A DNA stretch of 64,000 bases from Yuukianura sp. NJ FZ-2021 (taxonomy: Eukaryota), in the NCBI GenBank assembly GCA_046563655.1, contig CM102285.1:3534001-3598000 (forward strand), given 5' to 3'. Each line of letters begins with the position of its first letter. Position 1 is the first letter of the stretch. The translations under genes were made by a program, and so were the position numbers. The notes beneath the pieces are model-generated. The model was not told the DNA's origin, did not search any database, and worked only from the letters and a program-made list of their open reading frames with translations. This document shows positions 3,254 through 60,987 of this stretch, piece by piece.

Positions 3254-4449
3254 TTATTCATTACTAGGCTCCGAAGTTTCAATGGCATATGCGATTCCCA
3301 GTTTTATATACTCATGCAACTGCGTAAAATTGACAGTGTCCAGTGTATCTTGTCGTGTGTGCCAGTAAGGACTGTTGTTTGGTTCCTTAGCATAGGCCAC
3401 ACGGTAATTTTCATAATAGAAGGAAGCATGATCTGAACAGCCATAACCACAAGTTCGGTCCTTCCATCCCCACTGCGTGTAGGTTTCAACGAGTGTGCGC
3501 AGGAATTGAGTCAGATCGACATCGATGTAATCCGTATTCAGCCCGATTCGTTCTTCCGTATAATATCCGTCTACATCAAAGTTCAGCATTGAAAAAACGT
3601 CCACTCCTGCTTCGGCGTAGCTTGACGCAATTTCTCCAGAACCACGAAGACCAACTTCCTCTGCAGCATACCACTGGAACTCAATTGTTCTTTTCGGAAT
3701 GAAATTTGCATGGAGAATGGATCGGAGTACTTCCAGAACAATTGTGGATCCACTTCCATCGTCATCTGCTCCAGGAGCTTCGCCATTGGCTCCGGATGTT
3801 GCTGAATCTAAATGGCTCCCGAGAATAACACGCTGCTGTGTTAAAGCCGGATCCGCCCCTTCAATGCGCACAATCACACTCGGTTGAATGTACGACGCAT
3901 GCTCAAATGTGTTGACGGTGACTGTTCCAGAATATCCACTTTCCACCACTGATGCCTCGGCTTGTGATTTGATAAACAGGGCTGCGTCGAGACCTGATTG
4001 GCTAGTGTAGTAACGGTTGAAAAATGACGTCAAACTGGTCAAAAATGTTTCGGCATGTGTCAAATCAATCTGAGCGATGACATCCTGTACTTGTGCTGTA
4101 AATCTCGGTGTCTGCGGGATTTCTATTTGATTTCAAAAACAAGAAATTAAAAAAAAAACATAAGTAAGAAAAAATAATTTGAATCTTAATTACCGCCAGA
4201 ATTTGGAGCTTTTTTATGGGAGTGTGACGATTCTTTTTGATCTGTAATGTCGATAAATCCAATTCCAAGACTGTTTAGCTTCAAAATTTGAGATTCGGTA
4301 AGCCATTGCCCAAGATCTTGTTCACTTGTTTTAATTAACCTTTTTTCAGTAGTTTGAACTGCTTCATGCACCCTGTCATCTTCTAGCGGTTTTGAAGTTG
4401 CCAGTACTAACAAGACAGCAAACACTCCAAAACGGATAAATCCGTTCAT
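3254..4449 (-). CDS. Secreted M28-family leucyl aminopeptidase, fungal LAP1 / Vibrio aminopeptidase type (2 exons: 4449-4194, 4122-3254; ~374 aa)
   Basis: Signal peptide MNGFIRFGVFAVLLVLATS, propeptide with FIDITD, and Zn-ligand motifs VILGSHLDS, APGADDDGSG, YAAEEVGLRGS, MLNFD, CGYGCSDHASF and PYWHTRQDT. A 71-nt GT-AG intron (4193-4123) joins the two ORFs in phase. Confidence 0.92.
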
Positions 4450-34900: not shown

Positions 34901-34920
34901 TGGGGCTGTAACTCGTCAAA

Positions 34921-35202
34921 TGAAAAATGGTCTGGATCAGAGTAGGATGGTCGTAGAATGACCCACAATATATCAAACTTTAGAAAAAGACTTGACCTAG
35001 TATCCTGTTGAAAAAAAATTACAAAATTTTAGTTCTATCTATGTAAATATGGAGGTGAAATGTTTGGGTCAAATTTTTTCACAGTTAGAACTAAAATTTT
35101 GTAATTTTTTTTCAACAGGATACTAGATCAGGTCTTTTCCTAAAGTTTGATATATTGTGGGTCATTGTACGACCTTTCTACGCTGATCCCCACGATTTTT
35201 CA
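34921..35202. repeat. Long imperfect palindrome (~117-bp arms, ~48-nt spacer), probably inside a TTAA-flanked element (34867-35440)
   Basis: 34921-35037 is the reverse complement of 35086-35202 with about 10 mismatches. TTAA-GG at 34863 and CC-TTAA ending at 35444 are candidate outer ends. Confidence 0.8.
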
Positions 35203-38200: not shown

Positions 38201-40806
38201 TTTGAATTTTGTTACAAAAATTAACGCGTAGGAAAATTTCACAGAATAAAAAGTTGTTTTTTTGAAAATTTGAAACAATACGGCAGCGCATAACTTATCT
38301 TTACGTTTTTCAGCAAAGGCAAAAGGTATTCGCTTTCGCGAACCCAAATATCAAAATATCCACCAACAAACTTTTTTCTCAGTAGTTGTATGTACAAGTT
38401 AATCTTAGCTTTGTGTATTAAGTTAGGTTTTGTTTGTTTTAACTGTTCCTGGCACCAAGTTATGTTTTGTCAACGTGACCCAATCTAGGGAAAGGCCTTG
38501 CTACTACAGTGCTATGACTACTTTGTGATTTTGATTGGATTTGGTGACTGGAGAGCAGGTAATGTTGACGGAGGGTGATCTCTGTGTCTGTTCGTGTTTT
38601 CGGTGCTTTCTCCTTGCAGTTGAATAAATAAAGTGCACTCAGCTCTGACTGGCTCCTCCGAGGGATATGGGATGTGAATTGTCAAGAAAATCCTTGGATC
38701 TCCACCATTACATTTTCAAGAAAAACGGAAAAATTGCCTCCAAGGCTCTTGTCGGAAGACAGGAAAAGTGTCGCTGTAGGAAAGGTGGAAGTTCTACACG
38801 TTTTGAGTTCCATGCAAAAGTAGGACTGGAAGTATAGGAGAAAGCATAAGCAGTAGGGGAGGAATAGAAATTGAATCCAACGGAACAACTGACATGAGGA
38901 ATAAGAAAATGTTATGTAAATTGTGTATGGCAGAATGGAGAGAGCACGGAGAGTAATGGGAAATCGGAGAGACTCCATGCTCGTTACCATGGTTTCTGCC
39001 AGGAAGTCTTTGATGTGAACTCCTATACTTTTCTTTTGGCGTTTCGACACAAAATGTTTCCAGAAAAATGGTCAGAGATCAATACGAGTTATGGTAAAAA
39101 AAAACGGCAGACATGGCGTCTCACTTTTTAGTAAGTCCTTCCATTTTAGAGGATTCCTAAAAAATGCAATCTTCAAAAAAAAGGAAAACAATTTTTTTTT
39201 TTGCATTAATACGGTTTTGGAAAAAAAGGCTTCAAAATTTGTAAAAATTTGAGGGCTGAAACCTATGTAAAGCAAAATTGAAAAAAAAAATGTTGAGAAA
39301 AAAAAACTCAAATCTAATCTAACTCAAGGGAATACTAAGTAGTCTAAATTTTGAATGAACATGTGTAAGCTTTAATTGAAAGTTGTTAGCGGTTGTAAGA
39401 AAATTGGGGAGGTTTCTTGATAAGCGATTTTTTCAAAAGAAAGGAATTGGAAAGAAAGCTTTCAATTACTCGGAATTGGAATCAGTCTGACTTTGATTTT
39501 GTAAATAATAAAAGCCGTACGAGAAAGTATCCAATTTTCGAAAAGTAATAACTTTTTTCTTTCCAAAAAGAAATGGGTCGGCATAACTTTTCTTTTCATT
39601 TTTTCATATTTTGAAGCAAGTCTTGTTACAAGGTCTATCCTTTCTTCTTATACTTTTGTATGGACTTGATTAAAGTGTAGACAAGACTTAAGAGCTGGAA
39701 AAACGATATTGCTCCCCATTTCTTGTCACTTTTATTGCTTCCTTTTGTTGTGTCTTGAAGAAACGATATTTTCTGGGAAAAAGAAAACATATAGAGAAAC
39801 TGTGGAGAAGGAGATGGAGTAAACTTCTAGCAGTTGGAGCCTTCACAAGTAACCAAGAAAGCCCTTGGCACCAATTATGAAATTGGTTGAAGCTCCACGT
39901 GCAATTTGAGGTCAACGGATACTTCAGAGGTCATAGGTCACCTTACATCAATCTAAAACAAATGAACAAACACAAAGTTAAATTTAGCAGAAATATTTTA
40001 ACACTTGATTGATAAACTAACAATGCTAAAGAAAACAAATTTTTGCAACTGAAAGCTCATCGGAACGAACTTTTATTCTTTGAGCTCAATTTCTTTTTAA
40101 ATCCTTTAGTTGTCTAATCCAAATTTTCTTCGTAACCACGTAATTGTTTGCGTGTTAGAAATTTTCTTTCAATGAAGAGTTCACTCTTTTATTCAAAGTG
40201 CAATGCAAAAGGTATAATTTGGCTTTTTTAACAGATGAAACTTTTTTGGGTTGTTTTGGTGTTAAATCGAAAGTGAGTATGGCTCTCCAAGTCGCTATTA
40301 TCTCAAGAGACTTGAGGAATTTCTCCGCTTTCTCCCACTAATAAGGTTCTCGTGACTCACTTGTAAAGCGCAGGCAGAAGAACATAATCAACGTATCCTT
40401 ACAGCCTCATCTCACTTTTAGCACTTTTCACCCCACTTTGAGCAGATTTTGACAAATCAAGAATGACCTAAACTCAGAAATTTTGACATTTGACCTGTTG
40501 CTGAATCACTTAATCAAAAGATTCGAAAATTGTGTAACTTTTTCTACTTAAAAAAAAACAAAACACTCAATTTCACAGTTTGGATGACTTGTACTCCGAT
40601 TCCTGTCATGGAACCAAATGAGTGAAAGTGAGGATGAAGTTTGAGCTGCGCGGCGGGAAATTCAAATCGCTGCCATGATTTGTGTCTCTGGATTAACGGA
40701 AAGCCGAATACTAATCAAGGGGTGCCGAGATGTATTCCCATGTGACAAAAATTGACAAAAGCGGTTCTCATCTGCATGGAATCAAAGTTCTTTCAAGGTC
40801 TGATGA

Positions 40807-41887
40807 AATAAACCGGTTGTAAACCGCCCATACTGATAATAGCGAAGCAATAGGCCCCCCGAAGGGGGTTTGTTCCCCCCACTTTCCCGCCTCCCCCCCC
40901 CGGGGGGAGTGGGGGTGTGTTTTCTCCAGTTTCCCGCCCCCCCGGAGTAGTGGGGGTGTGTTCCCCCCACTTTCCCGCCCCCCCAGGGTGAGTGTGGGTG
41001 TGTCCAGGGTGAGTGTGGGTGTGTTCCCCCCACTTTCCCGCCCCCCCCCAGGGTGAGTGTGGGTGTGTTCCCCCCACCTTCCCCCCCCCAGGGGGTGTTG
41101 ACATGTGAGACGTGACAGCTGAGGCGTGACAGGTGACAGGTGAGACGTGACAGGTGACACCCGGCAAGTGACACGTGAGGGTGACAGGTGACACGCGGCA
41201 AGTGACACGTGAGTGTGACAGGTGACACGCGGCAAGTGACACGTGAGTGTGACAGGTGACACGCGGCACGTGACAGGTGACACCCGGGAAGTGACAGGTG
41301 ACACCCGGTATGTGACAGGTGACACCCGGCAATTAACAGGTGACACCCGGCAATTAACAGGTGACAGGTGACACCCGGCAAGTGACAGGTGACACCCGGT
41401 GCGGTGGACACAGTGCATGAGTGTGTAAAGTGTATATGTCAACTGCGTAATAGATTTTTTGCTAAGCAGAGAACCAAGTCCCATGCCAATTGCCTTTCCA
41501 GTCTCACAAGCAGAGTTTTTGTTACACACACTTGCATTACAAATGACCTTTGAAATCGATTTTGACCCGGAAGGAGGTGACCTAGGGTCACACATTACAC
41601 ACAAAAGTTGTTCCCCTCGATGAGATGAACAACTTTTGTAGAGGTCATTTTCCATGTTACCTGGGATGAAACCGGTTGACCTTGACCTTTGACCCGGAAG
41701 GAATTGACACCCGGGGGTCATATTCAATAGTGACCAAGCCCGGGTCATGACATGGTCACTGGTGAAAACCGGAATCAAATCGGACCAGTAGTTTCTGAGA
41801 TAATTAATCTGGACAGACAGACAGACAGACAGACGGACAGACAGACAGACAGACAAACCACTTTTATCATAATAGCTTCGCTATTAT
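40807..41887 (-). mobile_element. HINE/DINE-1-like element, copy A of a head-to-tail dimer
   Basis: Read on the minus strand: 5' hairpin ATAATAGC-GAA-GCTATTAT, (GTCT)n, conserved core, central GTGACA-based minisatellite, G-rich block, 3' sub-TIR GCTTCGCTATTAT and stem-loop CGGTTTACAACCG. Confidence 0.85.
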
Positions 41888-42973
41888 AATAAACCGGTTG
41901 TAAACCGCCCATACTGATAATAGCGAAGCAATAGGCCCCCCGAAGGGGGTTTGTTCCCCCCACTTTCCTGCCTCCCCCCCCGGGGGAAGTGGGGGGTGTG
42001 TTTTCCTCACTTTACCGCCCCCCCCAGGGGAGTAGGGGTGTGTTTTCCCGCTTTTTGCTCCGCACCCCAGGAAGCGTAGGGGTGTGTTCCCCACTTTCCA
42101 GCCCCCCAGGGGTAGTGGGGGTGTGTTCCCCCACTTTCCCGCCCCCCCAGGGGGTTTTGACAGGTGAGACGTGACAGCTGAGGCGTGACAGGTGACACCC
42201 GGCAAGTGACACTTGAGGGTGACAGGTGACACGCGGCACGTGGCAGGTGACACCCGGCAAGTGACAAGTGACAGGTGACACCCGGCACGTGACAGGTGAG
42301 AGGTGACACCCGGAAAGTGACAGGTGACAGCTGACACCCGGCAAGTGACAAGTGACACCCGGAAAGTGACAGGTGAGAGGTGACACCCGGCAAGTGACAG
42401 GTGACAGCTGACACCCGGCAAGTGACAGGTGACACCCGGAAAGTCACAGGTGAGAGGTGACACCCGGAAAGTGACAGGTGACAGCTGACACCCGGCAAGT
42501 GACAGCCGTGACAGCCGTGACAGGTGACACCCGGCGCGTGACAGGTGAAGTGACAGATGAAGTGTGACAGGTGACAGTTGAGTGTGTTAGTCAACTGCGT
42601 AATGGATTTTGCTAAGCAGAAAACCAACTACCATGCCAATTGCCTTTCCAGTCTCACAAGCAGAGTCTTTGTTACATACACTTGCATTACAAATGACCTT
42701 TAAAATCCATTTTGACCCGGAAACAGGTGACCTAGCGTCACACATTCCACACAAAAGTTGTTAGTCTCAATGAGATGAACAACTTTTGTAGAGGTCATTT
42801 TCCATGTTACCGGGGATGAAACCGGTTGACCTTGACCTTTGACCCGGAAGGAGTTGACACCCGGGGTCATATTCAATAGTGACCAAGCCCGGGTCATGAC
42901 ATGGTCACTGGTGAAAACCGGAATCAAATCGGGCCAGTAGTTTCTGAGATAATTAATCTGGACAGACAGACAG

Positions 42974-43004
<31 letters not shown>

Positions 43005-43039
43005 AACCACTTTTATCATAATAGCTTCGCTATTATAAT
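41888..43039 (-). mobile_element. HINE/DINE-1-like element, copy B of a head-to-tail dimer
   Basis: Same architecture as copy A. Its 3' hairpin end abuts the 5' end of copy A at ...GCTTCGCTATTATAATAAACCGGTTG... (41875-41900). The central minisatellite differs in length and order. Confidence 0.85.
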
Positions 43040-44765
43040 AATGGATCCAGAACACCCGGACGTAGGGGCATAAGGTTTGCATATTAAGTTAGGTTATACG
43101 TTAGGCTGTTAGGTTATGCAATATGTTATTCTGACTATACAAAGTATTAGGTTAGGTTATGCATACTAACGCAACCTAGTTTCGGAGATTGGGAGGATGA
43201 CTTCCCTGCATATAATTATAACGTGTAGGCTAAGCAGCCCTTGGCTACCATAACACTTTCGAGTTTCCTCATTATATTAACTGGCGCGAAGTTTTGAATC
43301 TCCCGCCATTTATCGTAGGTTTCCGCTTCAAACATTTGCATCAGAGGAAGTGACTACTTTTTTTTCGAATTTTTTTTAAAATTTCATATGCAAGAGACGA
43401 TCTCAGAAGGAAATAGATTCTAACAAAGGAATTTGAGAAGTAACTGGCATTTAGGCTTGGGTGAAGCTTACTTCACAACCAAAAGACGCTTGATAGATGA
43501 GTTACTACCGTTAAAGCCCATGGAAGCTAATTTATCACTTCTCTGAGCCCTTAAGGGCCTCGCCCAAAGGTTAGGCTAGACCAACCTAACATATTTTCTC
43601 TGCATAGTTAAATAAGCACATTCACCTCTCAGTTCCCACAGATTCCGAAGCGTCCCTTGAAGGGACAATTGAATATGCGTTTTTTATGCTCATTTACTGT
43701 TAGATATGTCCAAGGCCCTTGGACCCAACCCTTTCCTTGGAATTGCTTTTCTTGCATGATGAGCAACGGGATTTTGTCTATTCTCAGGTTCCGTTTGAAG
43801 GGTCATGGGTTAACATTAGGCTAGGTTCAGGCCAACGTAAAAAACGGAGGACAATTGTGTCTCGAAGGCTATTCAAATGAAGGGGCCCTTATTTGAATAT
43901 CCCTCGAAATTTCTTCATCTCAAATGAGGATCTCTCTCATCTTATTCCAACCTTCCAATTGAACAGAGAACAGTTTTTTATAAAGTTCCTTTTGAACAAA
44001 AAAAGCGAAGGGTTGAATTTGATCTGGCGGAATCTTCGGAGACTTCGTTTGTTGTCCAAGGGACGGGGGCCCTTGGGATTGTGGTGCCTCCAAGGGACAG
44101 GTTTTGGTGGTGGCGGATAAAAAGTATTACGGTATGATTCAAAACTCATAAGCAGCAACGCATAAAACTTCGCTATAAACCAGAAAAACTTCGTTTTGGA
44201 TTGTGAAAATCTTGAAACTTTTCTGAAATTTTGCTCTTTTTAAACGGTATATCTTTATGCTACAAATGTTCGAATTCAAAAAAAATCTACACAAAAAATA
44301 GTTTTTTCTCTGGAGCTGTACATAGGTAAAATTTTGAAATTTATATTTAACTTTGATTTCAACGTTTTTGTAAATTTAGTGCCAACTAATGGATTGAACG
44401 AGTGAAAGCGTGGAATGTTGAAATCGCATCTCTCGTTTTCATTACCAAGGTTAACTTGTTAACGTCGTCAGCAACGGTTTGGGTAGGTTAATAACTTGAC
44501 CAAAAGTTAGCATAATGTGCTCAAAATACAAAACTACTTTAGTCAAGGTCGTGTTAACTTTTTTTAAAAAGGCTTAACCACATAAGGTTTTTTTAAACTT
44601 GCGCGCCCTACTGTAGCGTCTCTAATGTTTGTAAAAGTGATGTTCAGTTATGCAAGTATCAAACTGATCTGACTGAAAATATCCCACGCTCTTGGTTTGC
44701 ATGATTTCGTATCTGGTTAAAGGAAAACAGATAGAGAGGACCCTGAATAAGGGCTACCTTGTCCC

Positions 44766-44928
44766 AGTAGGAGGGTAGAGGGGACTTTCACGCCAAATCA
44801 ACCTTTGGACCCATAAGGTTTTAAAGCAACTGGCGTGAGATCCCAAAAGTCGGATTAATTAAGACATTCTTCAAGACTAATTAACACTTCCGTTCAAGAC
44901 TAATTAAGACTAATTAAATACTTCCTGT
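44766..44928 (+). repeat. Left terminal inverted repeat (163 bp)
   Basis: The first 100 bp are identical to the reverse complement of the right end. The remainder is identical except for one extra TAATTAAGAC unit on the right. Confidence 0.95.
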
Positions 44929-45238
44929 TGACTTTAATTAACACTCCTGTTATTTAATTAGTACCTTTGTCCGCTGACCATGGAGGAGGAGGAGGAAGAA
45001 AAAATGTGGGATTCAACGCTAAACAAATTCTTTGGGGGTCGGCTTTTGCTTAGGGGGTCGGCTCTGGCAGAATCCTAACTTCCTGTAACAATTAACACTT
45101 CCTGTTATTTAATTAATACCTTTGTCCGTTAACAATATCTGGCGGGTGGGAGGAGGAGGAGGAACACGAAAAAAGGCTATACCCTGACCCACAAATTCTT
45201 TGGGGGTCGGCTTAGGGGGTCGGCAGGTGTCGAGAGGG

Positions 45239-45273
45239 TATATAATACCACACATTTACGGAGACTTTCAGTC
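45239..45273 (+). promoter_or_regulatory. Pol II core promoter of pPolB (TATA + initiator)
   Basis: TATATAA at 45239 and arthropod-type Inr TCAGTC with its A at 45270 (31 nt spacing), upstream of ATG 45389. Confidence 0.6.
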
Positions 45274-45388
45274 TCTGCGCAACTACTGTTCAGTTCTATT
45301 GTCCTAAGATTGTCGCTACCTTTTACGGAGACTTTCAGTCTTTACACAACTCAGTTCTATTGTCCTAAGAATCTTATTGTCCTAAACA

Positions 45389-48300
45389 ATGTCAAAGCGC
45401 CAAGGAACACCAATTGTTGGACCATCAAGTAAACAATTTAATTGCATACTGTGCGCTCAAGGGTTTGCTTCTCGAGCAATATTAAAACTACATTTCGACC
45501 ATGTCCATAAAAACTGTCTTGAACCAGCACCACCAGGTTACGATGTCACGAACGAGAGTATTCTACAGGAATTTCGCCATTTGTTTTGCTATACATGTGG
45601 TATACCATTTGATTGTCGGAATAAGCTTCAAGAGCATTTCTACACCACTCATCCAGACTTTAGCATTCAAGATGGCGGAGGAATATCAACCGATCCTATA
45701 TCCGTGACTTTAGTGCTGGAATCTCTAAAAATGAGTCGCAAGTACATGGCCGACTTTGATACATTTCCATGTGGTGAAGGTGTCGACGAGAGAGACTTTT
45801 TTACGAATGTTAAACTATCATCCTATGAAGTCATCCGAGAAGACATCTCCAGATGGAAGAACTTAAGGATATTTTTTACCTTGGGGTGTCACTTCACCAA
45901 AACGCACGGAGATGGAACGGTAGAATCAAAGGATGTTGGATTCACCTCATTTCGACACCTTGTCTTCAATGCAAACATGCTACCTAAAGTTTGGTCAGTC
46001 ATGTGCAGCCAAATGTCGGACCAGATTGAAGACTTTACCAATGAGGGCAGCGGCTGGACTCTGGATTCCATTCGGAAATTTGGATTTGTCACTTCAAAAT
46101 ATCAATTCACCAAGATTGGTACATACATGGACACCCCGTACCCACTATCAACTCAAAAAGTTCTGCTTAACATCAACAACAGCAAAGTCTCAATGGACAA
46201 TTCCCACAACAAATGCTTCCTCTGGTCAGTGCTCGCCCATGACAAAATCGGTGGCATACCAGTCGGGAAAAACAACCATAGGTGCCGCATTGACAAGCTT
46301 GTGAAAACATACCAGCCAAATGAATACAAGTTGAACACTAAAGGACTCCATTTTCCGATGACTTTGGATCAGATCCCTCACTTTGAAGAACTCAACCCAA
46401 ACATTTCTATAACCATTCTTGGTTATGACATGGATGGACCACAGCCACCGAAGTTGAGCAAAATTGAATCATTCAATTTTATACAAAGCAAGATCTCAAT
46501 ACTGTACAATTCCCAACATCCGAAGGAAATACACATCGACTTGATGTGTCTTATGCAAGAAAACAACGCACACTTCATTCTGATTCGAAATCTTGAAGCC
46601 TTAATGAGAGCGCCAAATGATCACAAAGTCAAGCATATTTGTCGCAACTGTCTCTCCAATTTTCAATCAGCTCACTCTCTACAACAGCACATCAAGTATT
46701 GCGCAGCGTTGGATCTTCAAAAAGTTGTATATCCTGCAGACAAAAAATTGACTTTCAACAAGTGGGCCAGAACTCAGCCTGTACCATTTCGATTCTATGC
46801 AGACTTTGAAGCTTTCCTCCCAAAGTTTAATCCCTCAACTATAGAAGAGGAGGAACGCCGACAATTCAAAGAAGAGATACGTGGAAGACCAGTTCAACCT
46901 GTGAATAAATGTTGCACTCACCTACACAAGCCATGTGGATATGCTTGGGTTTGTGTCGACTTCAACGGAAAGCGAAGACATGGCGAATATTATCATATCA
47001 CCAGCGATGACGAAGACGTTGCTGCCAAATTCATTCAGAGCATTACTGAGTACTCCAAAACACTGGAAGAGGAAGTTCGGTACTATGAAAAAATTGCGCC
47101 AGATATGCTTAATCTGACTCCAGCGCAAAGAAGTGCTGCTGCCCTTGAAAAAAATTGTTGTTTTTGCAAGACGCCATTGGACGGAACGAAAGTACGACAC
47201 CACTCACATCTTCCACCGTTCAACTATATCGGGATGGCTCACCAAGACTGTAACCTCCAAGCACAAATCAAAAAGGAGTTTCCCGTCTTCATGCACAACT
47301 TCTCATCATATGATGTTCACTTCATTGTACAATCCGCTGGAAAGCTAAAGCAGGACGGAATCATCAAGGACATCACTGTTATCCCTAAGAGCAGTGAAAA
47401 ATACATGTCGCTGAGCATCGTTCCTGCGTACCACGATGATTTCGATGAGGACGATGGACCTTGGAGAAAAAAGCCCTTCAAGCTGAGGTTTACAGACAGT
47501 CTTGGATTTACACTGAAATCTTTGGACAAACTTGTGAAAGTGATGCGAGCTGATCCCAATGCTAAATTTCCAATTACAAGACAAGAGTTTGCACAACACG
47601 ATGACATTGAACTTCTCTTCAACAAAGGAGCTTATCCTTATTCTCTCATGAAGTCTTGTAAGGATTTCAAAATCAAACAACTACCTGCCAAAGAAGATTT
47701 CTATAATGACTTGACGGAATCACACATTGATAATGCCACTTATCAACACGCTCAGCAAGTCTGGAAAAGCTTCAACATTCAAGACATGGGAGATTGGCAT
47801 GACTTGTACGTCAGGCTAGATGTATCGCTTCTGGCTGATGTGATGGAAGGAATCCGAAAAATAATGTTTGATGCTTACGAATTGGACCTGGCCCATTATT
47901 TCTCGTTACCTATGATGGCAATGGACTGCGTTCTCAAGAAATCAGGAGTGGAATTGGAGCTAATCACGGATCCAACCATGCATTGCTGGCTGGAGCATGC
48001 TATTAGAGGTAAAACCTAGAAGACAAATGTTAGACATTTTCTAATTCATTTTATTTATAGGTGGATATGTTAGCGTTGGATCAATGCGAGAGGCTAGAGC
48101 GAACAATAAGTACATGGGAGATGAATACGATCCAGAAAAGGAGTCCAGTTACCTCATCTACATCGATGCCAACAACTTATATGTAAGTGTTCAACAACGT
48201 CTTTGAAAAATTATTATCTAAAGTTTAATGATTCACTAGGGCAAAAGCATGAGTCTTCCGCTTCCAACTGGTCAATTCCGCTGGCTAACAGAAGAAGAAC

Positions 48301-49632
48301 TGAAGAACATTCAAGAAAATAATTTTATCGTGAACAACGAAAAGGGGTACATGTTTGAAGTGGATTTGGAAATTGATCCTTCATTGCATGACAAGCTGAA
48401 CGATTTTCCTCCGGCTCCAGTTAGCCGTACAGTTGAACAAAAGGAGTTATCCACCCACCAGTTACAATTGACGGAGAAACTCAACACTTGTCCTGGAATT
48501 TTCAAGGTTAAGAAACTTGTGGCTGATCTGAATAATAAGAAGAACTACATTCTACATCACGCCATTTTGATGGAGTACCTGAAACTTGGAGTTAAAGTTA
48601 CAAAACTTCACTGCGGAATTTCCTTCACTCAGAGGCCATGGATGAAGGACTTTATCGACTTTAACACTGAAATGAGAAAAAGGGCTACATCAGACTTTGA
48701 AAAGGATTATTGGAAACTTCTCAACAATTCTGCATTTGGTAAAACAATCGAACAAGTTCGTAAACGTCAAAACGTTCGTATCGTTACATCCATGGAAGAA
48801 GCTCTACGTTACAACAAGAAACCCACCGTCCAGAATGTCATCCCAATTAACGAGTCAACATGCATCTTTATGATGAAGAGACTTCAAGTCACTTTAAACA
48901 AGCCAATATATACGGGCGTCACAGTGCTTGAGCTAGCAAAGAGCATCATGTACCGACATCACTACACGATACAAGCGAAATACGGCGTCGACAAGTGTCG
49001 CCTTATTTATACTGACACAGGTAAATGTTGAATTATCCAACAATTTAACTATAAACTAAAGCTAACTTTTTATTTCAGATTCCTTCATCTATCACATCCA
49101 AACCGATGACGTTTATCAAGACATGCTCCATGACAAGGACTTGTATGACATGAGTGAATATGAATCCGATCACCCCATTTTTGGAGAGTTTCACGATCCC
49201 ACAAACAAGAAAGTTTTGGGAAAATTCAAAGATGAAGCTGCCGGTTCTGTAGTCACTCACGTCGTTTGCCCTCGTCCAAAAATGTACACCATTAGATCCT
49301 TGAAACTTCAAGTCTACCGAGGCTTTGATGGGAAAAATATTTACCAAAAGAAGACTGACGGCAGCTGGTTCATCAAAGACGAATACACGAAGAAAGTCAA
49401 AGGAATAACTAAAACTGCTGTCAACAACCAAATAGCGTATGAAGATTTCGAGAAAGTCCTTAAAGAAGATGTTCAAACTCGTGTATGGATGAGAGGATTT
49501 AGAAGTGTAGAGCATAGAATTTTCACAGAAGTAACGTTAAAAAGGGCTCTTAACGGTTTAGATACGAAACGATATGGTGTTGATAGAATTAACACATTAG
49601 CATTTGGACATAAGGATGTGATTAAACAATAG
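45389..49632 (+). CDS. Protein-primed family B DNA polymerase, Polinton type (4 exons: 45389-48008, 48061-48182, 48240-49020, 49079-49632; ~1358 aa)
   Basis: ExoI YADFE, ExoII HNFSSYD, ExoIII YVRLD and motif B KLLNNSAFGK. Splicing restores IRG|G, DANNLY|GKSM (motif A) and YTDT|DS (motif C). Also two N-terminal C2H2 fingers and an EndoVII/HNH-like insert CCFC...VRHHSH...AHQDCN. AATAAA at 49681. Confidence 0.93.
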
Positions 49633-49689
49633 TTTATTATAAGTCGTGTCTATTGAATTAGTAATCGTAAAACTGAAAACAATAAATGT

Positions 49690-50115
49690 TTATAAAATCA
49701 TTTTGTCAAGCATTTTCAACAATCCTGCTTTGGTTATATTGATTACATTTCTTTTTCCGGCTTTTACAACAGCTATTAAAAAATCTAATTGACTTGAATC
49801 CAACTGGTCGGATGATTCCTCTTCATCGTCATCTGAATCAGAATCAGAATCGTCTGCTCCTTCCACAAGCTTCCGTAAACTGTCCAAAGTTAGCCGTTGA
49901 ACTCCAATATCCGCATTGTGTAGCGCATGAAGAATTAGCGATAAGCTGGATTTGCTCATGCCAGAATGTGCCTTAGAGTCATCTTCTTCTTCAGTTTCCG
50001 TTTCAGAGTATGCCTCAGAATCCATAGCTTCGTCTGAATGCGCAGTGCGAATATGTCGATGTAATGCGTCAGCGCGGGAAAATGACTTGGAACAAATGTC
50101 ACAGTAAACAGGCAT
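49690..50115 (-). CDS. Small single-C2H2 zinc-finger protein with acidic tracts and two helical repeats (~141 aa)
   Basis: MPVYCDICSKSFSRADALHRHIRTAH. TATAAAA (50164) and Inr TCAGTT (A at 50132) lie just upstream on the minus strand, and minus-strand AATAAA is at 49638-49633. The longer called ORF runs through the microsatellite and is not credible. Confidence 0.8.
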   Translation of the reverse strand: MPVYCDICSKSFSRADALHRHIRTAHSDEAMDSEAYSETETEEEDDSKAHSGMSKSSLSLILHALHNADIGVQRLTLDSLRKLVEGADDSDSDSDDDEEESSDQLDSSQLDFLIAVVKAGKRNVINITKAGLLKMLDKMIL

Positions 50116-50128
50116 GATGTACAAATGC

Positions 50129-50380
50129 AACTGAACAAATTTTTTCGGTTGCAACAGTTTTATAGTGGTGGTGGTGGTGGTGCCTCCTCCTCCTCCACCT
50201 CCTCCACCACCTCCTCCTCCTCCTCCTCCTCCTCCTCCTCCTCCTCCTCTCCTCCTCCTCCTCCTCCTCCTCCTCCTCCTCCTCCTCTCCTCCTCCTCCT
50301 CCTCCTCCTCCTCCTCCACGCAGGCTTATCAGGTGGTCGTGGTGTATATAAAGCGTTGGTGTGATGATGGAGGCACTTCT
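50129..50380. promoter_or_regulatory. Bidirectional promoter with back-to-back TATA boxes enclosing a (GTG)6 + ~(CCT)45 microsatellite
   Basis: Minus-strand TATAAAA 50164-50158 with Inr at 50132. Plus-strand TATATAAAG at 50345 with Inr-like GCACTT at ~50375. (GTG)6 at 50165-50182 and an interrupted CCT tract at 50183-50317. Confidence 0.7.
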
Positions 50381-50416
50381 GTCCCTCATCATTTGTGTTT
50401 CAGCATTCACAACAGC

Positions 50417-51151
50417 ATGGATTGTAGTGTTTGCAACAGTACGTTCACACGTTCGGATAACCTTAAACGCCATGTATATACTGCACATGGACATCAAACC
50501 GATGATACTACAGCGGATCGTGATACCACAGCGGATGAGTGTTTTGATTATAGGTTAAAGGCACCATTCTGCATGACAATTAGCGGAGCAAGCCAAAGTG
50601 GGAAGTCGTCGCTTCTTAAGCAATTACTCCTTCAACGTTTTGAAATGATTGATATTCCGATTAATGATATCCTTTATTGTTATGGAGAGCCAGAGAATGA
50701 ATTTTTTAAGGATCTGAAAAGTCACATCCCAACAATTGAATTTCACTATGGATTACCTGACGATTTTGCGAGTCCCTGCAACACTCATCGAATAGTCGTA
50801 CTTGACGATCTAATGCATGAAGTTTGTGCTAATAAGGATATCGCCTCAGCATTTACTCGAACGAGCCACCACAGAAATGTGAGCATAATTTTCGTCACTC
50901 AAAACTTCTTCGAGAAAGGACAACGTACGATAACAACAAATTGCCAGTATATTTGTTTCACGAAAAATCCTCGAGAAGTCTCTCAAGTTCTCTGCTTCGG
51001 ACGTCAGCTAACAAAAAACGGAAAACGTAACGAAGCTCTGGAAACGTGCTATGAAGACGTTATGAAAAAACCGTATGGTCATGTATTTATAGACCTGCAC
51101 CAATCCCAGGATGATAGGTTTAGAATCACAGAATCCTACAGAAATAATTGA
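50417..51151 (+). CDS. FtsK/HerA-superfamily (A32-like) packaging-type ATPase with N-terminal C2H2 finger (~244 aa)
   Basis: Finger CSVCNSTFTRSDNLKRHVYTAH, Walker A GASQSGKS, Walker B IVVLDDLM, motif TRTSHHRNVSIIFVTQN and C-terminal KPYGHVFIDL, as in Polinton ATPases. AATAAA at 51172. Confidence 0.88.
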   Translation: MDCSVCNSTFTRSDNLKRHVYTAHGHQTDDTTADRDTTADECFDYRLKAPFCMTISGASQSGKSSLLKQLLLQRFEMIDIPINDILYCYGEPENEFFKDLKSHIPTIEFHYGLPDDFASPCNTHRIVVLDDLMHEVCANKDIASAFTRTSHHRNVSIIFVTQNFFEKGQRTITTNCQYICFTKNPREVSQVLCFGRQLTKNGKRNEALETCYEDVMKKPYGHVFIDLHQSQDDRFRITESYRNN

Positions 51152-51183
51152 TAATTTTATTTGACTTTGTGAATAAAGACCGT

Positions 51184-51900
51184 TTAGCAATCTCTTTTAC
51201 CATGAAAAGTAATTTTCCAAATTATGTCACTGGAATAATGCTCTAGTCGAATACTCTCAAGTACAGCAAGTTCTCTCTTACCATAGAAACTATCTATTCC
51301 CCATTTCCATCTGTTAATTTCCATTTGCTGGTGCTTAGTAACGTCCAGTACATGTTGACTGTAGTTTGATGTATTAGTTGTTGTGCAGCAACAGTTGAAC
51401 TCGCCAAAAATACTCCTACAAGGATCGATTTCCAATTTGTTGTGACAGGATCGGAACGCCTCATTGCGAAGTTTCTCGATGTAGCCGCGTTTAGTTTCAT
51501 GAATCAGCATATCCAAAGATTCCTCCAAGTATGTGATAGGAAAACATCCACATTTTAGAAGTGACTCAACCAGCAGAGGAATATGGTCCAAATCGATCAT
51601 AACAGGCGCGCCGCTTCGGATAAGGATGACACGAGATGATGCGTCCTTGATAAAATGAATCGGCAGTAGTGGTTCATCCGGCGAGTACTCATTTTGCTTT
51701 GCTGCATTGTTACGGTTCTGTAGTAACAGCTTCTCAAAATGTGGAAGATGCTTAATCATTCTTCCTTCTTCAATATATGCTTTGACTAGCTCCTCTACAA
51801 CCGTTGGTAGTTCTTCGGATGAGAACATAATTGAACTTCCAGAAATCCCGACGCCAATGAGTCCCATGCTTAGAAACACTTCCGGTAGGGTAGATTCCAT
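51184..51900 (-). CDS. Hypothetical protein, paralog A (~238 aa)
   Basis: Intact ORF inside the element, colinear with 52186..52881 (LPHFEK, YLxESLDxxIHExKR, NCCC, HxLDxTKHQQ, IxFHG). Minus-strand AATAAA at 51161-51156. Confidence 0.8.
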   Translation of the reverse strand: MESTLPEVFLSMGLIGVGISGSSIMFSSEELPTVVEELVKAYIEEGRMIKHLPHFEKLLLQNRNNAAKQNEYSPDEPLLPIHFIKDASSRVILIRSGAPVMIDLDHIPLLVESLLKCGCFPITYLEESLDMLIHETKRGYIEKLRNEAFRSCHNKLEIDPCRSIFGEFNCCCTTTNTSNYSQHVLDVTKHQQMEINRWKWGIDSFYGKRELAVLESIRLEHYSSDIIWKITFHGKRDC

Positions 51901-52185
51901 TCTTGGCAATAGTAAATTTTAGTACAATAGTAAATGGATGGTGATGGTTAAACTGTATAGGTAGCACTGCGTTCCCCCCTGAATGTGGGTGGCATTAAAT
52001 TCCCCCTAATCACATGTTCAAAGTAAGTTCCAAAAACGTTTTTTGTACAAGAGCCAATCAGATTCATAGTCCTGGGGGCGAGGGAGTTAGCTCCTCCTAA
52101 CAAAGCAAAAAGAAAATGAATTAGTCCCAATTAGTTCAGTCTTAACTGGTCGTAAGAAGGAAACGCGAGTTTAAATTAGCTCAAC

Positions 52186-52881
52186 ATGGAAGTACTTTCG
52201 TCCACATCCGGTATTGAAGTCAGAAATTCATCTTTTTCCATTACTTTTACTTTGGAGGAACTGACGACGGTAGTTGAGAAGTTAGTTGTTCTATACATTG
52301 GAGCGGGGAAAATGATGGCTGACCTACCGCATTTTGAAAAAATTCTGGCTCAAAATCGTAAGAAAGCGAGCCAAGTAGAATCAGTCCGGGAAATCAGGGA
52401 AGCGAGTATTCATTGCATACGAGAAGATGATCAAGTATTCCTAATTCGAGCGTCTGGCGCTGCTGCTGTTAAGCTGGATCAAGTTCCACGTTTGGTTGGA
52501 AGACTCCTAAAATCATTTCCAACTTCGTATTTAGACGAATCGTTGGATAGAGTTATCCATGAAGCAAAACGAAGCTACTTGAAGGATCTACGCGAATTGG
52601 CTTTGAGTAGGTGTCGAAATAAAGAAATTCCAAGTAATGGAAGTGTTTTCGATCGTCCTAATTGCTGCTGTCCACAAACAAATCAACACATTCGGAAACA
52701 ATATACGTCACATTTGCTGGATTTGACAAAACACCAACAATTTCAGATCCGTCGAAGAACCTTTGTTATGGAGAGTTCTACACGTAGCATGTATTCTACG
52801 CTCGAGGAACTTCGAATGAAGCCGTACAGTGCTGATGTAATTGGCAGCATCATATTTCATGGTGTTCTAACCACTCCATAG
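52186..52881 (+). CDS. Hypothetical protein, paralog B (231 aa)
   Basis: Intact ORF divergently oriented to paralog A and homologous to it over nearly its full length. Confidence 0.8.
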   Translation: MEVLSSTSGIEVRNSSFSITFTLEELTTVVEKLVVLYIGAGKMMADLPHFEKILAQNRKKASQVESVREIREASIHCIREDDQVFLIRASGAAAVKLDQVPRLVGRLLKSFPTSYLDESLDRVIHEAKRSYLKDLRELALSRCRNKEIPSNGSVFDRPNCCCPQTNQHIRKQYTSHLLDLTKHQQFQIRRRTFVMESSTRSMYSTLEELRMKPYSADVIGSIIFHGVLTTP

Positions 52882-53705
52882 CTTGTAATTTTAATGTAAC
52901 TAGGATTTACAGATGTTAAAAATTTGAAGAAAAATGATTGTCCTTTCTAGTTTCGTTTAAAAGTTGAAAAACAAGCTGGCAAAGTAATTAAAGAACCTGG
53001 CCAAATGTGTTTAATTAATGTTCACACGTAGCGTTAAGAGAATTGTTCTAGGAAGCATTAATGGATTTACAAAAAATTTGAAAATAAAGGATTACAAGTC
53101 CTTTCTTGTTTCGTTTAAGAGTTGTGAACAATGTTCAAGCTTCATTGCTGCTTAACCTATAACACCTACATAACGGTCAGTTGTTGTAGACCGGAAATGA
53201 TTAAGACCGGAAACCACCAATTACCGGTGCATGTGTCCGATTTTGCAAAAGGACTATAGACTAAGTTGGTTAGTTTACACATGAACTAAAAGGCATCCTA
53301 ACTACTCATGGTTTAAAGTATGAATTTCATAATTTTCAGTGACGCATGCATTTTTTGTTTCAAATTTGGTGGGAAAGTTGTTCCTATTGGCTCGTGGTTA
53401 GGTTTCTCCACACATTTAAAATTGGATTTTGATGGGTGTTTTCATGTCATCCATTTTAACAAATTGGAGGGAGCCAGAGAGCGGAATTGGAGATTAGGCC
53501 GGATGTAGAATCATTATGGATGCAGAAAAGTAACTGACCATTTAGACATCCACGCCACCTTTTAAACCGTCTTGCTAATGCGACTAATTAATGAGAACAG
53601 ATGGCGTTTAACTGTCGCGGGATGTATTTAATTGGACACAGGAAGCGTTAATTGGTTTTAATTAGTCTTGAACGGAAGTGCTAATTAGTGCGTTCAGGAA
53701 TAGTC

Positions 53706-53878
53706 ACAGGAAGTATTTAATTAGTCTTAATTAGTCTTGAACGGAAGTGTTAATTAGTCTTGAAGAATGTCTTAATTAGTCTTAATTAATCCGACTTTTG
53801 GGATCTCACGCCAGTTGCTTTAAAACCTTATGGGTCCAAAGGTTGATTTGGCGTGAAAGTCCCCTCTACCCTCCTACT
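53706..53878 (-). repeat. Right terminal inverted repeat (173 bp)
   Basis: Reverse complement of 44766-44928 plus a 10-bp slippage duplication; followed directly by GTCCC. Confidence 0.95.
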
Positions 53879-56443
53879 GTCCCTTTTGCTTTCAAGGGAC
53901 CAGGGCCCTTGGAACCCTTTACGGGTTTTGCTTGTTAAAAAGCAAAGGCCAAGAATTAAAATACTCCTTCCCTAGATTTGCATGTATTCAAACCAGGTTG
54001 AAGTAGGTCCTTTCCCATGACCCTTCGGAAGGTCAAAATCCATTTGGAGGCCCTTCAATCCTTTCGGAGTTTTCAGTCTCCGATATGCAAAAAGACCCGG
54101 GAATTGTTCCTTGGAAGAAGAAAAAAATCGGAAGGCATCATCTTTTCCTGGGAAAGGGACAGTTTTGGTTCTGCGGGCCCTTTTCTTCTGTTTATTTGAA
54201 TAATAAATCAATATATTATGCTGATTTAACGGGTTTTAACCCGTTCCTTCTCTTTTTTAAGCAAAGAAAAAGCGGGACCCTTAGAAAAAAGTGTTTGATA
54301 AGAAAGATCCCTTGACCTTGTAGGAAGGGCCCCCTCTTGTCCCTTACGGAATCTCCCTATGCAAACTACCACTACGAAAATCTTTTTGGTGGACTTGGAG
54401 GCAAAACCTCCGTTTTCGCTTCCTTCCTGCTTAGGCTTGTTTGGTAAGCGCAACTACTTTTGAGACTGTACTAGTAGACGCACCCTGAAAAAATGGAAAG
54501 TAAAAAAATCGATCCAGAAAATCGTGTGAGGAGGACGTTGTTGGAAATGTATAGGAAGTGAAGCTAGCTGATGACATCATTCCTTTTGCTTAGAAAAAAA
54601 GTTTAAGCGAAAAGAGTCTACGATTTCTTTCTGAAACTACCTTCACTCTTCTTACGTTCTTTGAACCAAAAGGAAGCAAAAGTTCTGGAGGAAGCAGAAC
54701 CATACGCAAGTATCGCTTCACTTTTACCTTATTTTTCAAAGTTGGTGGTACACATGGTAAGACTTAAAAAACATTTCAAGTTCAAACCACATTTGAAAAT
54801 TTTTTGGAAGGTTCATTTTGCCTAAAAAGAATTTGGGCATTTACGGAAAGAAAAAAGTTTCTTTTTTTAAAAAAAAAAGGTCCCAACTTTTCTTCTCGGA
54901 AAACTTTTCACTTTCCCAAAATTTGTGAACTCAAAAAATTTTCACAGAATTCTTTTTGGAAAAAAAGGTGTGCTAAATTTGGGAGTTCTCATACTAAAAA
55001 TTCAAGAAACCTAAACTAAGAAACTAAAATTAAACAAAATTTGCAAAAGCCCGTGAATGTAAAGTGAAAGCAAACTTAATACATCGGTTTGTGAAACTAA
55101 AAAGTTAATGTTGAGTTAAATTAGTAATGCTTTTTATATAACAGATAAAAAAATTAGTAATGTTAGGCATGCCTAGCAAACTTGGAACAAGCGTTTTCTG
55201 GAAGACGGGGCTTTGTGTTTGACTAAAGTAAGGTTAATTAATTTAACCTAAATTACTCAAACAAACAAAATCAATTTACATTGTTAGATTGAAAATAAAT
55301 TAGGTTAGGCTAGGAATATTAAGCAAGCTACCTTCATTTGATTTATGTGAGAGTTGGTTAAGTGGAGATGATGGGATGCTTAAGATGAGATGTGATTAGC
55401 CGCCTTCTCTTTCTCTTGTGACTTTCATGAATGAAAGTGAAAGTGGCGTGCGTTTCAGGTTAGGTTAAGGAAGTGTCTTGGAAGGGAGACGCTGTTAGGT
55501 TAAGGTTAGGCTTTGTGCCTACTTAAACTTCTTAAGATTTATACTCATCCACTCCACCGAGAGACTATAGACACTTGACCTCCTTTAATCTTCAGTTCCC
55601 ATCGAACTCCCTTACCTACCACAATCCTATTTTTATTTTTAGACACAAAAATATAGAATCGGAAGTGTAACTTAATTACGATTTGTTTAAAATACGGCCT
55701 ACAATTGCGTTAGGATTATAAAATGTTTTACGGCTGCTGGTATTTCTTCTTGAATGTGATTTTGAAAAGCGCGTTACATATTCTTTAATTCTTATTTCAG
55801 AATACACGTTTTCAAAACAACATTTCCTTAAATTAAAGTAAGTTAATTGCTAGTTAATTAACCGAGTTCTGCAATACGGAAATCAGGAGTGTTTATAACC
55901 AGAAGCTTAAATTTAAGCTGGAAAATTTTCTAGACGAGTAATTAAAAGAAATTTTGTTAATCACGCTATTAAGACGAGATCGAAGAACCTGAAAATAACA
56001 TTAGAAAAGAGGATTATACAATTATATTCTTAACAGCAATAATTTTAGTTTTTCAAGAAATATAAACAAGATATTAAACGTTTTCCAATCCATCTAGTGC
56101 AAATGATGATTATTGTAAAAGAATTCAAAATATAACGAAGGCTTACAAAGTACTAAATTATTAATCACCTTAAATAAATTGATAATTATTTTAATTTAAT
56201 TTCTGTATTTACAGGTTTCTCAATATTCAATGGCGTGGCGAAGTCAGAATCTTCTCAAACATTATACAAAAGAAATCTCAACCGCTAAATTCACTTCCAT
56301 CTAAGTACGAAGTACTACTAACTTCAGAAGGTAAGCAAAATTATTTTGAAATTGTTTAGTCTGCATTGCTTCCAAGATCTTTATTACTAAGCATACAAAA
56401 AATTGAAGTATAAAAAGCAAACCTAGATTTTCGAAACTCTTCT

Positions 56444-56571
56444 TGATTTAAACAAAATAAGTCTCCACGCTTTTAAGTTCTCTCGCAATGTTATGAATTC
56501 TCGGACCTGATTTAAACAAAATAAGTCTCCACGCTTTTAAGTTCTCTCGCAATGTTATGAATTCTCGGACC
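56444..56571. repeat. Perfect 64-bp tandem duplication
   Basis: TGATTTAAACAAAATAAGTCTCCACGC...GAATTCTCGGACC occurs at 56444-56507 and 56508-56571. Confidence 0.9.
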
Positions 56572-59500: not shown

Positions 59501-60808
59501 AGAGACCTTTAGGCGCAGGGCACGCCAGGACCTAGCACTGTTTCGAACTCACCACGCAAGAATCACATTCTGCTCAAAAACTTCTTCCTGTAGTACCTTG
59601 CTTTCGATTTTAAATTCTCTGAAAATGTAAATTTAATTTTTGGAGAATCCGGATTTTTTTTTTAGGAAAACGCTTCATAAAAATTTTTTCAAATAAACTT
59701 TTGCGTATTAACTATTCACTGTATCGTGTTCGCCATCATCTTACATATTCAAATGAAAAGTACAGCGTTGGTAACTCTATGAGTGCGTTTTAGGCTGCAA
59801 CGTTTGTCAAATATACGTTGGGGGCATGTTGAGATTTTGAACAGCGCTATTTGAAAACATTTTTGAATTGATTGACTAATTAGGAGTTTGTAGCCGGTAT
59901 TGTGGTGTGGTGCGTGATGCGTGTCAAGTTGAGAAGTTGTGGAATTTGGAAAGGGAAAGGAGGTCAATGCCCTATGCGTTTGTATTTGGAAAGAAAGTTC
60001 ATTAGAAGTCTAGACTGGAGAGAGACATTGACACAGATTTTAAGTGGGAGCGGGAGAGAGATGCTCCAGTTTTAAAGAGTTTCTCTCAAGTTTTAAACCG
60101 CTGCGGCGGCAGTGGTAGCTCCAATCAATAAATTTTCTCGCCTCTTTGTCCCTACCCAAGGCTAATGGGATAGTAGGCGTAGTAGGTAGAGTAAGAGTAG
60201 TAAAGTAGTAAAAGAGGCTGATGAGGTGGATCTTTTTTTAGAACTATTCTTTTTTCCCGCTCTTTTCTCCCTGTGTACTCTTGATGATGATGAGGAGTTA
60301 GGTTGAGACATCCCAAGGAAAAGTAAGGGGGGAAGTTGAGACTCGGGGAAAGTAGAAGTCTAGTGAAAGAACTCATTAAAAAGTAGACGAAGGCGGGAGA
60401 CTTGGAAGAAGCGCATGGATCCTCATTCACTTTCAGCTATAGTCTTATTAGCGGAAGTCTGAGGGAAGCGCAGAGGCGTTAATTTAAGAAAAGCGAATCC
60501 CTGCACAACTTTCTCTTCCGGGGAAAGCACGTGGAGACGCCTAGGCTCCGTGTAGATAGCATAACCTAGGGCAGACTCCCTTTCAGTCTTTACTACTTTT
60601 ACTACTTAAAACTTTTGTGAATGAGGCCCTCATCACGCCTAGACTTTTTTTTAGCCTTTTTTAGATTTGGCTCAAACTAGGTTTCTGGGAAAGTTCAAAT
60701 TAGAGCGGAAAGGCATAGCATCATTTTCATTCATTTTCATTCAAAAGTGAACTTACCCCGATTACAAAACTTTCAACATACAATTTTCTTCCCTCACTTT
60801 TCATCAAT

Positions 60809-60987
60809 TGGTAGCACGCCATTTGTCCGAATGAATTAGTCCGAAACGCAATGGGACGAATGAATTGGTCCGAATGGCCGTTCGAAACAACATTACTCCA
60901 AGATCAATTCCTCCGAATGATTTCGGACCAATTCATTCGTACCATTGCGCTTCGGACCAATTCATTCTGAGCAGTGGCATGGAACCC
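60809..60987. mobile_element. Small foldback/MITE-like element with repetitive inverted arms
   Basis: GAATGAATTAGTCCGAAACGCAATGGGACGAATGAATTGGTCCGAA (from 60829) matches the reverse complement of ~60922-60967 with 3 mismatches. The arms are built from short CCGAA-containing subunits. Confidence 0.65.

Follow-up and report, generated by a model that had tools for sequence, protein, structure and literature searches.

A 9.1-kb Polinton-like element from Yuukianura sp. with a polymerase and a packaging ATPase and no detectable integrase, capsid or protease gene

Polintons are defined by their polymerase and integrase, and an element shorter than 10 kb is normally set aside as debris. In this study, we analysed a stretch of 64,000 nucleotides from Yuukianura sp. 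NJ FZ-2021 (assembly GCA_046563655.1, contig CM102285.1, positions 3,534,001 to 3,598,000 of the forward strand; hereafter the window), in which an element of 9113 bp, bounded by inverted repeats, spans positions 44766-53878. The closest described systems are the animal Polintons and adintoviruses, above all those of the springtail clade, which share with the element a PolB of the same clade, an A32-type ATPase 46-51% identical to its own, and terminal inverted repeats (TIRs) starting AGTAG with a target-site duplication (TSD) of 5-6 bp. In locus L001, PolB is the first gene beside a repeat-filled end, as it is here. The element differs from animal Polintons in its length (9.1 kb versus the 13-25 kb stated in bioRxiv 10.1101/2023.08.22.554363), in the absence of a detectable rve integrase, double jelly-roll (DJR) capsid protein, penton or adenain, and in the presence of C2H2 fingers on three proteins and of three introns in PolB. 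It also encodes a pair of paralogs, predicted to be PUR-like, of which no counterpart was found in any of the 18 related loci.

Loss of morphogenetic genes within the Polinton lineage was described by Krupovic, Bamford and Koonin in 2014 for capsid-less Repbase Polintons. According to the account of nine such elements in PMC4028283, the ATPase and protease were lost with the capsid gene and the integrase was kept, whereas the present element keeps the ATPase and has no integrase. The nearest described case is its converse: the polB-lacking polintons of Pieris butterflies, as presented in bioRxiv 10.1101/2025.02.07.637071, are recently mobile, bounded by TIRs and short of a hallmark gene, which implies mobilisation in trans, but they kept capsid, packaging and integrase genes and lost polB. 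Transpovirons and cytoplasmic linear plasmids are also small (~7 kb) and TIR-bounded, with a polinton-like ancestry and a lost structural module, in the descriptions given by PMC5499653 and PMC11161782, and transpovirons travel inside the particles of a helper. By the same two sources, they are extrachromosomal and live in giant-virus-bearing protists or fungi, whereas the element sits integrated in the genome of an animal; they lack a packaging ATPase and carry either a fusion of pPolB with a superfamily 1 helicase or an RNA polymerase next to a plasmid-type PolB. We rejected membership among the transpovirons, as the element is integrated and neither a profile scan nor motif reading found a helicase in its PolB. 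In the literature searched (Repbase reports and supplements excluded), we found no account of a Polinton that has PolB and ATPase while lacking integrase and capsid, and the wording of non-autonomous or defective Polintons or Mavericks concerns Tlr1 there. No paper on an adintovirus together with a springtail was found in the library searched (Repbase reports, subscription journals and supplements excluded).

On balance, with a confidence somewhat above even, we read the locus as a 9.1-kb element that descends from the Polinton/Maverick (adintovirus) lineage of soil hexapods, has lost the genes for the integrase, both capsid proteins and the protease, keeps a self-contained replication module and the packaging ATPase, and obtains its integrase in trans.

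The position of the element was examined with exon 1 of PolB (residues 440-873). Of 3702 candidates, 426 proteins matched at E ≤ 0.001. Metagenome proteins with 49, 45, 41 and 38% identity were the best relatives, followed by Folsomia candida with 35%, and the matches to Polinton-type PolBs had E-values from 8.5e-121 to 1e-51. We built a FastTree phylogeny of 41 rows (38 of the 120 listed hits, with all named ones used, plus L010, L002 and the element) and an IQ-TREE quick tree of 21 rows over the 392 columns filled by the element, both midpoint-rooted. The results showed that the element's PolB groups with P0001 and P0002 (SH-like support 96 in FastTree, SH-aLRT 97 in IQ-TREE). P0003 and P0004/L002 come next outward and then Folsomia, and an enclosing clade with support 100 contains the Folsomia copies, an adintovirus of the springtail Orchesella and L010/P0011. 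L010 is a canonical Polinton contig whose PolB and ATPase are each 46% identical to those of the element, and the Polinton-like nature assigned to the element by an earlier sequence-only reading is thereby borne out. These comparisons support its placement in the Polinton/Maverick (adintovirus) lineage. A scan of IMG/VR with PolB returned one distant contig (L018, 28% identity), and scans of the same database with the ATPase and with the 29-nt terminus found nothing.

We then searched the element for the genes that a canonical Polinton would carry. No match to rve, capsid or adenain families was obtained in the eight main open reading frames (ORFs) at E ≤ 0.1 or in 55 further stop-to-stop frames of at least 45 aa at E ≤ 0.01; two of the 55 frames gave low-complexity matches below the cut-off. 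For the DJR major capsid protein, there was no unassigned ORF of capsid size and no DJR-like domain. Peptidase_C5, the adenain-like protease family, matched neither the main ORFs nor the further frames, and the rve integrase had no match, with a fold-level check that covered the two paralogs only. The DNA left unassigned amounts to stretches of 460, 301, 285 and 824 bp, the largest of which has no frame above 63 aa. The claim of the sequence-only reading that no ORF resembles these proteins and that little room is left for one thus withstood the wider search. The same scans were applied to two control loci. L010, a 13.8-kb metagenome contig, gave Pox_A32, rve (E 3.7e-11), BIR and RING domains, Peptidase_C5 (E 5.2e-4) and a 630-aa ORF, and L014 gave the DJR-like domain PF21738 (E 2.3e-9), so the scans are able to see rve, adenain and DJR proteins, which they did not see in the element. 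For the penton, sequence scans say little, as Pfam names none in the element and none in L010 either; the only candidates of penton size are the paralogs, whose models (of moderate confidence) show two three-stranded meanders and long helices and not an eight-stranded roll. No related sequence was found elsewhere in the window.

The boundaries of the element were determined by a repeat search and an end-to-end alignment. The repeat search gave two segment pairs, 44765-44865 with 53779-53879 (101 nt, 100% complementary) and 44853-44928 with 53706-53781 (76 nt, 99%). Aligned end to end, the left TIR (44766-44928, plus strand, starting AGTAGG and containing TAATTA-type subterminal repeats) and the right TIR (53706-53878, minus strand) have 163 identical positions, no substitutions and a single 10-nt indel, an additional copy of TAATTAAGAC in the right arm, just as had been read from the letters. 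The ends, AGTAGG...CCTACT, are of the Polinton type (AGTAG...CTACT), and the 20-nt terminus occurs within the window only at the two element ends, with 0 expected from 100 shuffles. Vertebrate Maverick ends are given as (AGT)2//(ACT)2 with 6-bp TSDs in PMC8097293. GTCCC abuts both ends, at 44761-44765 and 53879-53883. The earlier claim of a clean TSD therefore stands, but 5 bp is only one of two possible lengths: because a T precedes the left GTCCC copy and the element itself ends in T, a 6-bp TGTCCC (from 44760) is equally possible, the six letters fitting either side. We therefore give the TSD as 5 or 6 bp. Between the left TIR and PolB (44929-45388, plus strand) lie a pair of ~155-nt direct repeats that contain (GGA)n tracts and TTAATTA sites, a TATATAAT box and the PolB leader; GGAGGAGGAGGAGG tracts are located inside both repeats. 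The right subterminal region (52882-53705) is non-coding and contains dispersed repeats and TTAATTA sites. TTAATTAR sites number about seven per element end within 350 nt; the whole window has 32 strand matches against 16.5 expected, a number reached in 1 of 100 shuffles. An Rfam scan gave no match at E ≤ 0.1.

To compare the locus with its empty state, we used contigs over 43800-54800 from four coded sequencing runs (X1-X4), which contain 47-61% of the sampled words of the window. X1 and X4 come from one sample of organism A, and X3 comes from organism B in another study; as the best DNA source among the runs may be the window's own sample, X3 alone counts as independent. Contigs of X1, X4 and X3 contained a joint from 44759 to 53878 that skips 9118 nt, and no such joint was seen in X2. 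This joint is the empty target site with a single TSD copy, and the insertion is polymorphic. Because empty-site contigs exist, and with the TIRs identical, the insertion is both recent and precise, as had been proposed.

PolB (45389-49632, plus strand) encodes 1358 aa in four exons, 45389-48008, 48061-48182, 48240-49020 and 49079-49632, separated by three GT..AG introns at 48009-48060, 48183-48239 and 49021-49078 (52, 57 and 58 nt). Removal of the introns yields a coding sequence of 4077 nt whose sole stop is terminal and restores the motifs YIDANNLY|GKS and YTDT|DS. The motifs ADFEA, HNFSSYD, YIDANNLY, NNSAFGK, YTDTDS and PRPKMY were read, so that the exonuclease and polymerase parts are complete. 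PolB of P0001 and P0002 breaks off or reads through at the same intron sites. The metagenome sequences P0001, P0002 and L004 are read through or interrupted at positions matching introns 2 and 3 (48183 and 49021). P0004 is free of introns, so this PolB clade is still gaining or losing them. At the N-terminus, two C2H2 fingers precede a region whose conservation extends to P0001, P0004 and Folsomia. The corresponding region of Polinton PolBs is described in PMC11161782 and PMC8502044 as a terminal-protein (TP) domain plus a vOTU protease, and by this literature the element's region would be assigned likewise. PF03175 matched one of five aligned PolB members (E 2.2e-13) and not the element's exon 1 alone. 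Searches of PDB sequences with exon 1 and with a profile of the five members gave zinc-finger matches only.

Downstream of PolB, a minus-strand gene (49690-50115) encodes a 141-aa protein with one C2H2 finger (zf-C2H2, E 1.2e-6), an acidic middle rich in Ser, Asp and Glu, and a short helical tail. It is followed by a divergent promoter region occupied by a (CCT)n/(AGG)n microsatellite of 45.7 units (50183-50317) and by the A32/FtsK-type packaging ATPase (50417-51151, plus strand). The ATPase has a Walker A motif GASQSGKS and a Walker B motif VVLDD, passes the Pox_A32 cut-off of Pfam (E 7.3e-6; 26.1 bits against 22.8), and is 46% identical to that of L010, 51% to L002 and 74% to P0243. Its first 41 residues add a C2H2 finger that is present in P0249, P0250 and P0252 and absent from L010 and P0243. 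Single N-terminal C2H2 fingers recur on the ATPases P0249, P0250 and P0252 and on PolB relatives (P0001, P0004 and P0098), in related elements from metagenomes and in a pearl oyster PolB; given this recurrence, the C2H2 tag is a lineage trait and not specific to the element. Together with the two paralogs, these genes make up the five intact reading frames in alternating orientation announced by the sequence-only reading. Of the expression signals that it had listed, the overlapping poly(A) signals were found, with AATAAA on both strands in both convergent gaps (57 bp at 49633-49689; 32 bp at 51152-51183). The TATA promoters held for three genes, with a strict TATAWAAR ahead of the ATPase only (50345), TATATAAT ahead of PolB and TATAAAAC ahead of the C2H2 gene on the minus strand, and did not hold for the two paralogs, which have no clear TATA. 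In GC content by codon position, the element was not distinct from two flanking host ORFs.

These components suggest how the element would be propagated. Priming would take place at the TIR ends, with the terminal-protein domain of PolB itself as the primer, and PolB would then copy the element by strand displacement. The displaced DNA would be coated or melted by the PUR-like pair, perhaps at the element's (GGA)n tracts, and the C2H2 fingers of PolB, the ATPase and the acidic protein would bring these proteins to the TAATTA-rich ends. As the ends are of the Polinton type and the duplication measures 5-6 bp, insertion of the linear copy points to an rve integrase that the element does not encode; this enzyme would be supplied in trans by a full-length relative recognising the same termini. 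The retained ATPase would possibly pump the DNA into the capsids of that relative. We infer that both integrase and capsid are borrowed from a helper in this way. For packaging in trans, the main argument is the retention of the ATPase, and it is an argument only: the capsid-less Polintons covered in PMC4028283 lost the ATPase with the capsid gene. In the furthest-reaching version, an animal Polinton virus would have the element as its true satellite. The element would bring its own replisome, made of PolB with terminal protein and a PUR-like pair that melts origins or coats single strands at the (GGA)n tracts, and its own packaging motor, all with C2H2 tags for the TAATTA-rich ends, and would steal integrase and capsid from a full-length helper in the same springtail. 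In our view this version is possible but doubtful.

The sequencing runs also offered a view of related copies. Contigs matching the element at 85-99+% identity numbered 472, 722, 173 and 951 in the four runs, and the summed contig depth across PolB was several-fold above that of the flanks, a ratio not convertible to copy number. These results show that the element family is diverged and multi-copy, and it occurs in two coded organisms. Depth dropped directly after the PolB stop (49305-50038), from 344 to 148 in X1, 2847 to 869 in X2, 45 to 12.6 in X3 and 5272 to 138 in X4, so most PolB-like sequences of at least 85% identity seemingly have no counterpart of the element's right half after them. 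One X3 contig matched the TIR over no more than its outer ~97 nt and then continued into different sequence. Both observations hint at other element types that share PolB or the ends; being hints only, neither identifies a helper.

We consider it unlikely that the element is a dead end left by deletion from a full-length Polinton, copied or mobilised by chance, with no life cycle of its own and with an ATPase not yet decayed. This reading draws on the usual view of Polinton-like elements below 10 kb as incomplete (discussed in PMC4028283), on the 96% of vertebrate Maverick loci reported as degraded in PMC8097293, and on the fact that only one full copy was directly observed. Against it, all five genes are intact, including the spliced 1358-aa PolB, and the family was found in two coded organisms. 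A tblastx comparison with the 18 related loci revealed no relics of lost genes (4 of 23 rows lay outside known genes, all with E ≥ 0.17). We also examined the differences among copies. Of the 40 listed substitution rows (1160 more exist), 36 fell in the element, with 2 intronic, 18 synonymous and 16 non-synonymous changes; synonymous against non-synonymous, the listed changes stood at 11 to 4 from 47203 onward and at 6 to 11 over the N-terminal part (45663-46865). Eight of 12 listed indel rows (97 more exist) formed three coding groups of 12 nt in the ATPase, 6 nt in one paralog (B) and +3 nt in PolB, for which shared contig depths suggest one contig per group; of the others, three lay in intron 2 and one was intergenic. 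Although a biased sample, the listed differences fit purifying selection, and their enrichment in synonymous changes and frame-keeping indels does not suit a dead end. Nor does an old, selected gene pair, the paralogs described below, which is absent from the 108 ORFs of 17 related loci. Because the paralogs are old and selected and no relics of lost genes were detected, we take the element for a long-lived, streamlined derivative and not a fresh random deletion, in agreement with what its orderly layout had suggested to the sequence-only reading.

The paralogs, A (51184-51900, minus strand, 238 aa) and B (52186-52881, plus strand, 231 aa), are 45% identical, and each has a predicted PUR/PC4-like N-terminal domain and a helical C-terminal half with conserved Cys and His. 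Their divergence (pS 0.77, saturated; pN 0.37) and their identity by codon position (60, 66 and 37% at positions 1, 2 and 3) indicate an old pair of real genes under purifying selection. A two-paralog profile searched against 1,835,955,588 representatives gave two matches, both repeat artefacts; PDB sequences, NCBIfam, PADLOC, PHROGs and IMG/VR yielded no match at all, and neither did Pfam. The best hhalign probability against the 108 ORFs was 4.3%, and Protein Atlas had no usable match for paralog B. In X3, a contig of 1651 nt with a depth of 98.7 (flanks ~5) closes on itself across 53494 to 51884, giving a ~1.62-kb cycle (window 51884-53494) with paralog B, its promoter side and 600 nt downstream; it reflects a tandem array or else a circle.

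AlphaFold2 models of A and B were built from one two-sequence alignment and are not independent of each other. The model of B reached a pLDDT of 63.6 and a pTM of 0.66 and that of A 56.8 and 0.53, both of moderate confidence. The two models follow one plan, in which two units of three strands plus a helix are separated by a further helix and followed by long helices. The fold searches used VIA-align against 48,161 representative chains and Foldseek against the PDB; the latter gave no match at E ≤ 0.001, although Pur-alpha stood at rank 4 of its list and human PURA at rank 9. The PUR/PC4-like hallmark, a single domain built from two beta-sheet-plus-helix repeats, appears in both models, and Pfam, NCBIfam, PHROG and PDB sequences place neither paralog in a described PUR or PC4 family. 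The N-terminal halves are thus probably PUR/PC4-like domains. They differ from the Pur-alpha and PC4-like (Whirly-like) domains, such as PDB 3k44, in an identity of 7-8% and the lack of a Pfam match, and from Pur-alpha in the three modelled strands per repeat instead of four and in a C-terminal helical half with a Cys/His cluster that has no counterpart there. The structure prediction proposed by the sequence-only reading, here run on the two paralogs, therefore yielded candidate nucleic-acid binders and not an integrase or capsid, and so did not refute that reading: the predicted folds speak against both jelly rolls and RNase-H-like integrase cores. Chou-Fasman secondary-structure estimates were dropped, as they did not separate the control proteins. 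PUR/PC4-like domains bind single-stranded DNA or RNA, Pur-alpha favours GGN repeats and needs no ATP to destabilise duplex DNA, and a PC4 homologue serves replication in phage T5, as set out in sections of PMC7549692. The paralogs may accordingly act on the element's own (GGA)n tracts.

The paralogs bear on whether the element could be autonomous, with one of its own proteins integrating it by a new route through the paralog C-terminal halves, the PolB N-terminal region or the acidic C2H2 protein. Proteins without sequence relatives that were nevertheless selected since an old duplication would suit such a role, as would the invariant residues C143, CCC160-162, H176 and H183 in their poorly modelled C-terminal halves, and no helper was found within the window. 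Pfam, PHROGs, NCBIfam, PADLOC and PDB sequences showed, on the other hand, no likeness to DDE, tyrosine, serine or HUH enzymes; the confident part of the models is a nucleic-acid-binding fold with no known catalytic role; and the ends and TSD match those of the rve-driven Polintons treated in PMC8097293. We regard autonomy as quite improbable.

Least probable of all is a mainly episomal, linear plasmid-like replicon with the chromosomal copy as an occasional by-product: a full replication set without structural genes, TIRs as identical as protein-primed ends would require and the capsid-module loss from polinton-like ancestors described in parts of PMC11161782 and PMC5499653 favour it, but the precise TSD-flanked insertion, the spliceosomal introns and the nuclear-type poly(A) signals speak for an existence in the chromosomes of the nucleus, none of the run contigs was identified as having a free end, and transpovirons carry a pPolB-helicase fusion that the element's PolB does not have.

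Other features of the window were recorded alongside the element. A G+C-rich block (52-54%) at 40768-43041 contains a ~1.15-kb unit twice and is full of 14/28-nt and 21/34-nt minisatellites; inverted copies of parts of this block lie at 2134-2412 and 7312-7381. Two MITE-like hairpin inverted repeats lie at 34918-35205 (133-nt arms, 22 nt apart, 89%) and 60800-60996 (75-nt arms, 47 nt apart, 83%), and a perfect 64-nt tandem duplication lies at 56444-56571. Among the flanking ORFs, a terpene synthase of microbial type (788-1816, plus strand; Terpene_syn_C_2, E 3.2e-6) is 1.4 kb from an M28 leucine-aminopeptidase-like ORF (3257-4132, minus strand). The named relatives closest to the peptidase come from the springtails Orchesella (47-48%) and Folsomia (44%), ahead of zoopagomycete fungi (43%), which makes a springtail or a close relative of springtails the probable host. 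The terpene synthase and the peptidase may both have been acquired horizontally by such a host.

A short, intact, selected and recently inserted element of this kind would show that the Polinton replication module can persist alone. Integration, and perhaps encapsidation, would then be shareable between elements in the animal germ line. If it were a true satellite, the element would be an animal counterpart of virophage/transpoviron or phage-satellite parasitism. A PUR/PC4-like DNA-binding pair would have been recruited to a protein-primed replicon, and this recruitment offers a concrete candidate for the single-strand-binding function in Polinton replication.

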